From Clostridia bacterium (lineage in GTDB: Bacteria; Bacillota; Clostridia; UMGS1883), in NCBI GenBank assembly GCA_045661145.1, contig JAZRFC010000060.1:1-53319 (forward strand): DNA of 53,319 nucleotides, read 5' to 3'. Made by a program: the position numbers and the translations under genes. This document shows, piece by piece, positions 9,583 to 10,300 of the stretch. Within the stretch, counting starts at the first letter, position 1; every line of letters starts with the position of its first letter. Below the pieces are notes generated by a model, which had not been told where the DNA came from, did no database searches, and saw only the letters and a program-made list of their open reading frames with translations.

Positions 9583-9876
9583 ATGGAAATTGAAGCAATA
9601 GCTTTCGTTAGAGAATATTTTTCATTATTAGAAGAATACGAAGTGAAGAAAACAGAAAACAAAAGAATTGTTGAAAAATTAAAAATTCAAACAAAAGTAA
9701 TAATAAAGCATAGAGAACTATTTAACAAATATTTTGATACAAATATTCAAGATAGGGAGAGGTTTTATTCCAGGATAAATGAAACGATTGATTTTGCAAT
9801 CAGTAAAGCCGACACACAACTAATCGAAATATTAAGCGAAACAGTAAAACAAGTAAAAAGACAGCAATTATTATAG
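9583..9876 (+). CDS. Small alpha-helical hypothetical protein (paralog A)
   Basis: 97 aa, 2 nt after the previous stop; aligns without gaps to the next ORF. Confidence 0.78.
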   Translation: MEIEAIAFVREYFSLLEEYEVKKTENKRIVEKLKIQTKVIIKHRELFNKYFDTNIQDRERFYSRINETIDFAISKADTQLIEILSETVKQVKRQQLL

Positions 9877-9889
9877 ATGGAGGTTGCTT

Positions 9890-10300
9890 ATGAAATTATT
9901 TAAGAAATATGATAATGGTGAGACTGCTACATCAACAAACATGGAAGAAATTATAATTGAAAAATCAATAGAGGTAATAAAAGAAACAACGAGATGCTTT
10001 ACAGAATATTCTGAATGCAGAGAAAGGGAAAAAAGTGAGAGGAAAAGAATATCAGCACAATTGCGTGCCTACTTAAAAAAAGTGGATGCAATTAGAGAAG
10101 TTGAATTGGAAAAGATAAAGTTTACGCATGAAGAGAGAATGAGTTTGCTCAATGCGGCGGATAAAGCTTTAGAAATAGCAAAACAAAACGGTGATGTTAG
10201 GATTGTTAAAATGACATTTGAGTTTATAAATGAGACGTTAAATAAGGTTGGTTATGCAGATAAAGTATCTGTAAATGGGAGTTTATTAATAGAAGATTAA
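9890..10300 (+). CDS. Small alpha-helical hypothetical protein (paralog B)
   Basis: GGAGG RBS 6 nt before ATG 9890; shares the (T/S)E.KRI..L, RE, (D/E)R and A....D pattern with paralog A. Confidence 0.8.
   Translation: MKLFKKYDNGETATSTNMEEIIIEKSIEVIKETTRCFTEYSECREREKSERKRISAQLRAYLKKVDAIREVELEKIKFTHEERMSLLNAADKALEIAKQNGDVRIVKMTFEFINETLNKVGYADKVSVNGSLLIED

Follow-up and report, generated by a model that had tools for sequence, protein, structure and literature searches.

WXG100 proteins are helix-turn-helix proteins of about 100 amino acids (aa) with a Trp-x-Gly motif at the turn, and in the EsxA/EsxB system adjacent, paralogous small helical proteins of about the same length form heterodimers. 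In Bacillota, one elongated helical protein and two small helical proteins of about 100-150 aa assemble into a heterotrimer, as in the type VII secretion (T7SSb) targeting complexes LXG-Lap1-Lap2 (and Lap3-Lap4) (PMC10801868). The large partner begins with an LXG domain and ends in a toxin domain, an immunity gene comes after it, the lap genes typically lie upstream of the toxin gene, and the small partners are Lap1/DUF3130, Lap2/DUF3958, DUF5344 or DUF5082 (PMC10801868). Here, two adjacent small open reading frames (ORFs), A and B, were analyzed in a 53,319-nucleotide (nt) contig of a Clostridia bacterium (UMGS1883; assembly GCA_045661145.1, contig JAZRFC010000060.1). This whole stretch is called the window, and positions refer to it unless another locus is named. 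The initial annotation, made from the sequence of the window, had read A and B as distant paralogs, retained after an old tandem duplication as an obligate heterodimer analogous to EsxA/EsxB or LXG-associated pairs. It overlooked that the pair belongs to a horizontally mobile three-gene unit with an upstream gene, Y; as in the LXG-Lap sets, one elongated helical protein and two small helical proteins are thus encoded in one operon.

Taken as a whole, the data are best explained by A and B being true paralogs within a mobile Y-A-B(-C) cassette, whose products would form a complex and which may act as a conflict module; a probability of roughly 0.6 is assigned to this combined reading.

Similarity between A and B

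ORF A (9583-9876, + strand) starts with ATG and encodes an all-helical small protein of 97 aa, and ORF B (9890-10300, + strand) encodes a small helical protein of 136 aa. With ORF Y (8738-9580, + strand), a 280-aa coiled-coil protein and the putative large subunit of the cassette, they make up a compact co-directional operon in which Y is gene 1 and the A-type and B-type paralogs occupy positions 2 and 3. The Y stop codon is 3 nt from the start of A, and A and B are spaced by 13 nt. The ORF list places the start of B at TTG 9884 (138-aa version); the start is almost certainly ATG 9890, because GGAGG at 9880-9884 lies ahead of this ATG and every homologue of B (five clusters) was called as 136 aa.

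Both 60-residue segments aligned in the initial annotation are present exactly as given (A residues 23-82, B residues 48-107), and their alignment has 12 of 60 identities, zero gaps and a BLOSUM62 score of 47. The Smith-Waterman score of A against B was 64, compared with 35 +/- 6.4 for 3000 composition-preserving shuffles (z = 4.5). Composition-adjusted BLASTP of the two proteins returned E = 0.06. Word-indexed homologue searches with A and B yielded just close relatives (about 70% identity), four or five for each; the four close homologues of A were at 67-70% identity. These were insufficient to prove paralogy, since hhalign between profiles of close homologues only (67-78% identity) reached P = 0.008 and a probability of 4.9%. 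Taken by itself, the A-B pair is therefore of marginal similarity. At this level a chance or convergent resemblance had to be weighed, in which two unrelated K/E-rich helical ORFs align through shared composition and heptad periodicity. The weak BLASTP and hhalign values of the pair alone speak for it, as does multiple testing, the whole window having been scanned when the alignment was first noticed; against it, only 4 of the 3000 shuffles reached the observed score.

The decisive step was a search with the neighbour Y, followed by the reading of its divergent loci. Contigs with B homologues all showed the same block of 280-aa, 97-aa and 136-aa genes, and the Y profile search retrieved relatives at 25% identity on contigs that carry a 288-111-154 aa triad. 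With such divergent small proteins as intermediates, the similarity rose far above what chance would produce. B matched the A-type protein of the divergent locus L008 by BLASTP at E = 2e-7 (29% identity over 86 gapless residues), A matched the L008 B-type protein at E = 6e-7, and the two small proteins of the divergent pair matched each other at E = 8e-7. Smith-Waterman z values of the cross pairs were 8.8-9.5, whereas Y, used as a charged-helical control, stayed near z = 0 with each of the four small proteins. Between the enlarged A and B families, hhalign returned E = 2.4e-8 and a probability of 95.2% over 81 gapless columns, in the register first noticed, and this register was identical across all cross-comparisons. 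A 78-sequence Y profile against the small-protein profile reached a probability of only 0.8%, so charged-helical composition alone does not yield such matches. The same two values (z of about 0 and 0.8%) led to the rejection of the idea that A and B are repeats of part of Y.

Hidden Markov models (HMMs) were then considered, built from position-2 (A-type) and position-3 (B-type) proteins and run against a decoy database of six-frame ORF segments of at least 50 aa from the window and all loci (1010-1385 segments). The A-type HMM scored ORF A at 1.6e-38. When the ambiguous L016 cassette was left out, the A-type HMM matched window B at 3.1e-11 and the B-type HMM matched window A at 2.4e-5, with best decoys at 0.22 and 0.72. 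Models from four distant cassettes only behaved in the same way (A-type: window B 1.3e-10, window A 4.4e-10; B-type: window B 1.2e-24, window A 9e-6). Loci outside training (L017, L019, L020, L023) scored 3e-8 to 1e-16 with the opposite model. The single-copy proteins of a second cassette type (type II; L016, L025) matched both the A and the B model at 1e-18 or better, and they thus act as natural A/B intermediates.

On these comparisons, A and B are true ancient paralogs. This part of the initial annotation is borne out: the enlarged profiles (E = 2.4e-8) and the cross-HMM matches (1e-10 to 1e-5) lie far above the shuffles, the charged-helical Y and the decoys (at least 0.2), and both ORFs retrieve one family. 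The identity clusters it had pointed to, (T/S)E.KRI..L, RE, (D/E)R and A....D, fall on columns that are conserved throughout the superfamily, whose proteins of about 100-150 aa share the core EY..(C)..E.(T/S)ER.RI.A.L ... (K/R)E ... ER..L...A...L..A..GD. Chance resemblance is refuted by the Y control, the enlarged hhalign comparison and the cross-HMM results, to which the constant register and the intermediates matched by both models are added; what probability it keeps is negligible.

Cassette architecture and history of the superfamily

The Y profile was searched exhaustively with HMMER over 1.84 billion representatives, which yielded 99 Y-family clusters at E <= 1e-3, of which 63 reached E <= 1e-10; almost all were stand-alone proteins of 265-305 aa. 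In 14 of 14 distinct genomic contexts read, Y was directly followed by two or three small paralogs. Intergenic gaps within cassettes were 0-27 nt, with one overlapping pair. Type I cassettes consist of Y, an A-type protein of about 100 aa, a B-type protein of about 120-160 aa and sometimes a C-type protein of 80-97 aa; type II cassettes (L016, L025) consist of Y, one protein of 126-134 aa and then a C-type protein of 101-110 aa. C-type genes were located at L011 7691-7933, L015 4764-5057, L017 8601-8876, L016 3266-3598 and L025 9267-9572, and the cassette of the window is without one. The C-type HMM matched B-types (window B at 2.6e-6, decoys at least 0.4), which makes C a third, more distant paralog. 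The unit of Y with two or three small paralogs was kept from near-identical copies down to about 20% Y identity.

Neighbour-joining placed A, B and C in separate clades, with roughly congruent A and B subtrees and the type II single protein branching near the A/B split. The separation of the A and B clades held across cassettes whose Y had diverged to 20-25% identity. From the tree and the intermediates it follows that the A/B duplication was tandem and predates the type I radiation, with both copies co-evolving with Y; that A, B and C are three clades, with single-copy forms linking A and B, also marks the duplication as old. The ratio of nonsynonymous to synonymous substitution rates, taken from comparisons of the window with its three nearest relatives, lay within 0.07-0.20 for Y, A and B (A 0.07-0.19; B 0.11-0.20), so the three are real genes under purifying selection. 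An old and retained tandem duplication, as first proposed, is supported by the separate congruent clades, by purifying selection and by paralog-specific features that were kept in each copy. The superfamily as a whole arose through tandem duplication before the radiation of the cassette.

Some metagenomic copies looked damaged. At L005 (440-1282) Y was split into a 176-aa and a 65-aa piece, and among the A-type proteins P0011 was a frameshifted form of 78 aa and P0008 a read-through form of 114 aa. These copies could be products of decay or of assembly error.

Protein features and family searches

B-type proteins add a variable, low-complexity N-terminal extension to the superfamily core, and in several cassettes they start with MKDYFS.L. 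A cysteine pair in B, Cys36-x6-Cys43 (CFTEYSEC, 9995-10018), was kept in most B-types and is lacking in A- and C-types. In a B dimer, such a pair could form a metal or redox site. An AlphaFold2 model of B was all-helical (H16-45, H48-75, H80-100, H103-119), with a predicted local distance difference test score (pLDDT) of 55. Foldseek against PDB with this model returned generic four-helix bundles only (E of at least 0.4); the best superpositions were on FliS (template modelling score 0.52-0.65), NiSOD and de novo designed bundles. The FliS-type bundle has no sequence relationship to B, and the Foldseek result indicates that B is probably a helical bundle and nothing more specific.

For Y, AlphaFold2 predicted a long helical hairpin (H2-90, H134-200) followed by three shorter C-terminal helices (pLDDT 58), with a low-confidence, partly hydrophobic loop at 93-137. 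The best Foldseek match of the Y model in PDB had an E-value of 0.13. No conclusion on fold was drawn for either protein, because both models were of low confidence and Foldseek returned nothing below E = 0.1. Y of the window starts with MGFLKRLMFG. Across the family, an N-terminal M-G-Phi-F-D/G motif was found in 50 of 78 members (alignment A8). A similar second motif, Phi-F-D-Phi-Phi, was located in 23 of 78 members within the loop that leads to the second long helix, where shuffling predicts 4.6 +/- 2.1 such members. These Phi-F-D motifs of Y and the MKDYFS.L start of B may be docking or membrane motifs.

Searches of Pfam, NCBIfam, PADLOC and PHROGs returned no match for Y, A, B or the small upstream gene X described below, and scattered coiled-coil noise only for 78 Y homologues and 18 small homologues. 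PDB profile searches with alignments A7, A5, A9 and A8 found nothing beyond designed helical proteins and coiled coils matched by chance. The small-protein superfamily and the Y family are two previously undescribed protein families.

The shape predicted for Y brings up a membrane-remodelling or envelope-stress module of the PspA/Vipp1/ESCRT-III kind, with Y as a polymerising hairpin held by an N-terminal anchor and A and B as its regulators. Its predicted topology, a long hairpin with shorter helices behind it, fits, and so does the start of the protein: the MG(L/F)F(D/G) beginning of Y resembles the N-termini of Vipp1/PspA and of several ESCRT-III proteins, a likeness that the searches did not support. 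The 25 best Pfam families listed for the 78 Y members did not include PspA_IM30 or Snf7, no PspA, Vipp1 or ESCRT-III chain appeared in the PDB profile searches (E <= 10), and none was among the top 50 Foldseek matches of the Y model. A loop of 30-45 residues at the hairpin tip is atypical for such proteins, the partners of Y are soluble helical paralogs and not membrane proteins of the PspB/PspC type, and the patchy, island-like and mobile distribution of the cassette is unlike that of a core stress system. A module of this kind is accordingly held to be improbable.

Tripartite alpha-pore-forming toxins (Hbl/Nhe/Ahl/Smh) are made of three secreted, signal-peptide-bearing proteins, each of about 350-400 aa and paralogous to the other two. 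They were considered as a further candidate and excluded because of the sizes of the cassette proteins (280, 97 and 136 aa), because no signal-peptide-like hydrophobic N-terminal region was visible in the sequences, and because Y is unrelated to A and B (0.8%); no Pfam match was found.

Genomic contexts and mobility

The copy of the cassette in the window is carried by a low-GC island (7400-11400, no strand assigned) with 25-33% GC compared with 40-47% in the housekeeping flanks; one flank has a SpoU methylase, the opposite one YitT, CysE and CysS. Att-like repeats flanking the island were searched for and none was found. A small gene, X (8323-8724, + strand; about 121-133 aa, probable start ATG 8359), precedes Y. 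Its homologue (118 aa) precedes Y in L001-L005, and unrelated genes occupy this place in L006, L007 and all distant cassettes; X thus accompanies the cassette as an optional accessory gene within the window's clade alone and lies outside the cassette core. A sigma-70-like promoter candidate (TTGGTA, 16-nt spacer, TATAAT; 8206-8233, + strand), called by consensus scan alone with 10 of 12 matches, lies upstream of X-Y-A-B, and no terminator-like site was found between X and the end of B. The island also holds a glyoxalase-family gene (7795-8193) and, downstream of B, a gene for an RCC1-repeat protein with an N-terminal transmembrane segment (10340-11377). Neither is kept beside the cassette at other loci, and the RCC1-repeat protein is not part of the cassette core. 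The window sequence was present in bovine gut metagenome runs.

Elsewhere the cassette stood in varied surroundings. L001 carries type I restriction-modification genes, an ImmA-like HEIGH protease gene (6487-7086) and IS110; L006 a HipA-like kinase gene, identified by eye from sequence; L007 an ImmA/IrrE-like HEIGH metalloprotease gene (1-168) directly upstream of the cassette; L008 AbiU (PADLOC 1.8e-37) with a PLD-family protein; and L011 a 1406-aa kinase-NB-ARC-TPR protein with a PD-T4-6-like kinase domain. L023 lies inside an integrative element with ERF, a repressor, an excisionase-like helix-turn-helix (HTH) protein, DUF5906 and an integrase, and L025 lies among recombinases and transposases. 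L013, L017, L019 and L020 are solitary insertions in housekeeping regions. As raw counts, defence genes (type I restriction-modification, AbiU with PLD, PD-T4-6-like kinase-STAND, HipA-like) stood within about 5 kb of the cassette in about 4 of 14 contexts, and mobile-element genes were seen in 3 of 14. The cassette is horizontally mobile and is met as a low-GC island, as a solitary insertion, as a neighbour of defence genes or as cargo of an integrative element.

Further observations were made at single loci. The HEIGH metalloprotease gene of L001 is, as in L007, directly upstream of the cassette, and L001 also encodes a 301-aa sigma70_r4/RNA polymerase alpha C-terminal-domain-like protein with a weak PglW-like PADLOC match. 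A Rieske [2Fe-2S] gene stands directly upstream of Y in L008-L010 and at no other locus. In L020-L022 the cassette is flanked by ORFs of 263 aa and 253 aa (L020 4501-5292 and 7154-7915) that are, by eye, mutual paralogs and for which no Pfam family was recorded.

The locus L017, from a Butyricicoccus sp. metagenome-assembled genome, was the sole relative in a motif-seeded, non-exhaustive scan of 185,579 GTDB representatives. Scans with a more central alignment found this one locus in GTDB, two loci in JGI metagenome contigs and none in IMG/VR, and scans of GTDB genomes, JGI metagenome contigs and IMG/VR with the alignment of the window-clade Y found nothing. Phage and plasmid collections, searched by tblastn with Y and with the centroid P0021, gave no match. 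Absence from the phage, plasmid and IMG/VR sets neither supports nor excludes a phage-related role.

The contexts also bear on an addiction module resembling toxin-antitoxin systems, in which the toxic component would be Y or one of the small proteins, with neutralisation through binding by the paralogous small proteins. A small, self-contained module with tight gene coupling is what such a system would look like, and its appearance as mobile-element cargo in some loci and as solitary islands in others, with a HipA-like gene or an ImmA-like HEIGH protease gene nearby in L006, L001 and L007, points in the same direction. The cassette proteins have no known toxin or antitoxin fold or domain and no DNA-binding, antitoxin-like HTH, and an all-helical architecture of three to four genes is unusual for a toxin-antitoxin system. 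An addiction module is therefore regarded as unlikely, if less so than the envelope-stress module; it overlaps with a defence role, and the two appear inseparable by sequence.

The remainder of the window consists of chromosomal housekeeping genes. A lysine riboswitch (Rfam RF00168, 112 bits) at 44370-44536 lies directly upstream of a Na+/H+ antiporter-family ORF (44558-46192). A 915-aa ORF (28780-31527, - strand) matched no Pfam family at E <= 1e-5 and adjoins a GH26-domain protein (27038-28711). A fusion of IspH (LytB) with an S1 domain is encoded at 22212-24254; such fusions are typical of Clostridia, and the gene would thus agree with a clostridial host.

Proposed function

The tight spacing of the genes, their strict co-occurrence, purifying selection and the paralog-specific features were taken together as grounds for a hetero-complex. 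A and B would have separate, non-redundant roles in a helical, non-enzymatic hetero-oligomer that also contains Y, for which the odds are judged to be about even. That the cassette is a self-contained module of the conflict or defence type with a latch mechanism is a more tentative proposal, held as possible and well short of even odds. In this mechanism, the helical bundles of A and B would keep Y soluble and inactive in the complex, possibly by docking its short hydrophobic Phi-F-D-Phi-F motifs. A trigger would free Y from the A/B bundles, and the freed Y would act through its N-terminal motif and the hydrophobic loop of its hairpin, most plausibly at a membrane. In its most specific form, which is rated slightly lower, the proposal is of an undescribed conflict or defence system in gut Clostridia whose three components are all helical and non-enzymatic; in it, diverged paralogous four-helix bundles would serve as sensor or latch subunits and release a coiled-coil effector with docking or membrane motifs. 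If true, the small proteins and Y would represent new families that work in a new way.

Several results weigh against the combined reading or parts of it. Model confidence was low for both B (pLDDT 55) and Y (pLDDT 58). A hydrophobic segment of transmembrane grade was found in only 3 of 78 Y members, and Y is not a classical membrane protein. No consistent charge complementarity was seen between A-types and B-types. The A:B pair is not universal, because some cassettes have a single A/B-like protein with C. Defence neighbours were confined to about 4 of the 14 contexts, and those of L013, L017, L019 and L020 were purely housekeeping. No enzymatic or known effector domain was found in the cassette proteins; PADLOC-DB v2 gave noise matches (LmuB, ZorA, JetC) among the 78 Y homologues and nothing consistent for A, B and the 18 small homologues. 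A search found no RNA-seq runs containing the region.

Tandem duplicates of small helical proteins are common, so the paralogy alone is a modest result. Its value lies in the unit that it revealed, a compact mobile cassette of three to four genes under purifying selection, with about 100 Y sequence clusters in public metagenomes, bovine and human gut among them. If the cassette is a defence or addiction module, it would be a system made only of helical protein-protein interaction parts, and the A/B/C series with its single-copy intermediates would be a clean case of duplication leading to asymmetric subunits. Should it instead prove to have a structural or stress role, two new protein families with defined operon partners would still have been added.

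Comparison with known systems

The architecture of Y-A-B raises the question of a cargo set of a type VII secretion system (T7SS), in which Y would be an LXG-like or otherwise elongated T7SSb substrate and A and B its WXG100- or Lap-like targeting factors in a heterotrimeric export complex. Its resemblance to the tripartite LXG-Lap-Lap complexes (PMC10801868) speaks for this, as does a weak YwqH-like match (0.0015) in one of the 78 Y members. The sequences of the small proteins speak against it. The initial annotation had correctly seen that no WxG motif is present: A and B contain no Trp at all, and any Trp occurs in only 3 of 28 superfamily members. Neither A nor B matched Pfam WXG100 (PF06013) at E <= 1, and the 25 best families listed for 18 diverse small proteins (E <= 0.05) did not include WXG100. 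LXG was not matched by Y and was not among the top 25 families listed for its 78 homologues, and DUF3130, DUF3958, DUF5082 and DUF5344 had no consistent match in A, B, Y, the 18 small homologues or the 78 Y homologues. The gene content argues in the same direction. FtsK/SpoIIIE (EssC) was absent from the ten largest ORFs of the window, all of them housekeeping genes (no window ORF reaches 1000 aa), no FtsK_SpoIIIE annotation occurred in the 14 related contexts, and Y (265-305 aa, without an extra domain) has neither a C-terminal toxin domain nor an immunity gene. A T7SS cargo set is thus considered very unlikely.

Membership in an EsxA/EsxB or LXG-associated family was consequently rejected, and the analogy is architectural only, since the proteins lack WxG, LXG and Lap signatures and no gene of a T7SS apparatus was seen near the cassette. 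With EsxA/EsxB, the pair shares adjacent, paralogous, small helical proteins of about 100 aa; it differs in that no ESX/EssC locus accompanies it and in that the low-confidence model of B has four helices where a two-helix hairpin would be expected. Y shares with PspA, Vipp1 and ESCRT-III proteins its MG-Phi-F-D/G-type start and predicted hairpin, and B shares with FliS the form of a predicted four-helix bundle. The LXG-Lap sets are the nearest in layout, with WXG100 pairs next, and the cassette departs from the typical LXG-Lap gene order in every context read: the lap genes typically precede the toxin gene (PMC10801868), whereas the small genes here follow Y, and A and B are paralogs of each other.

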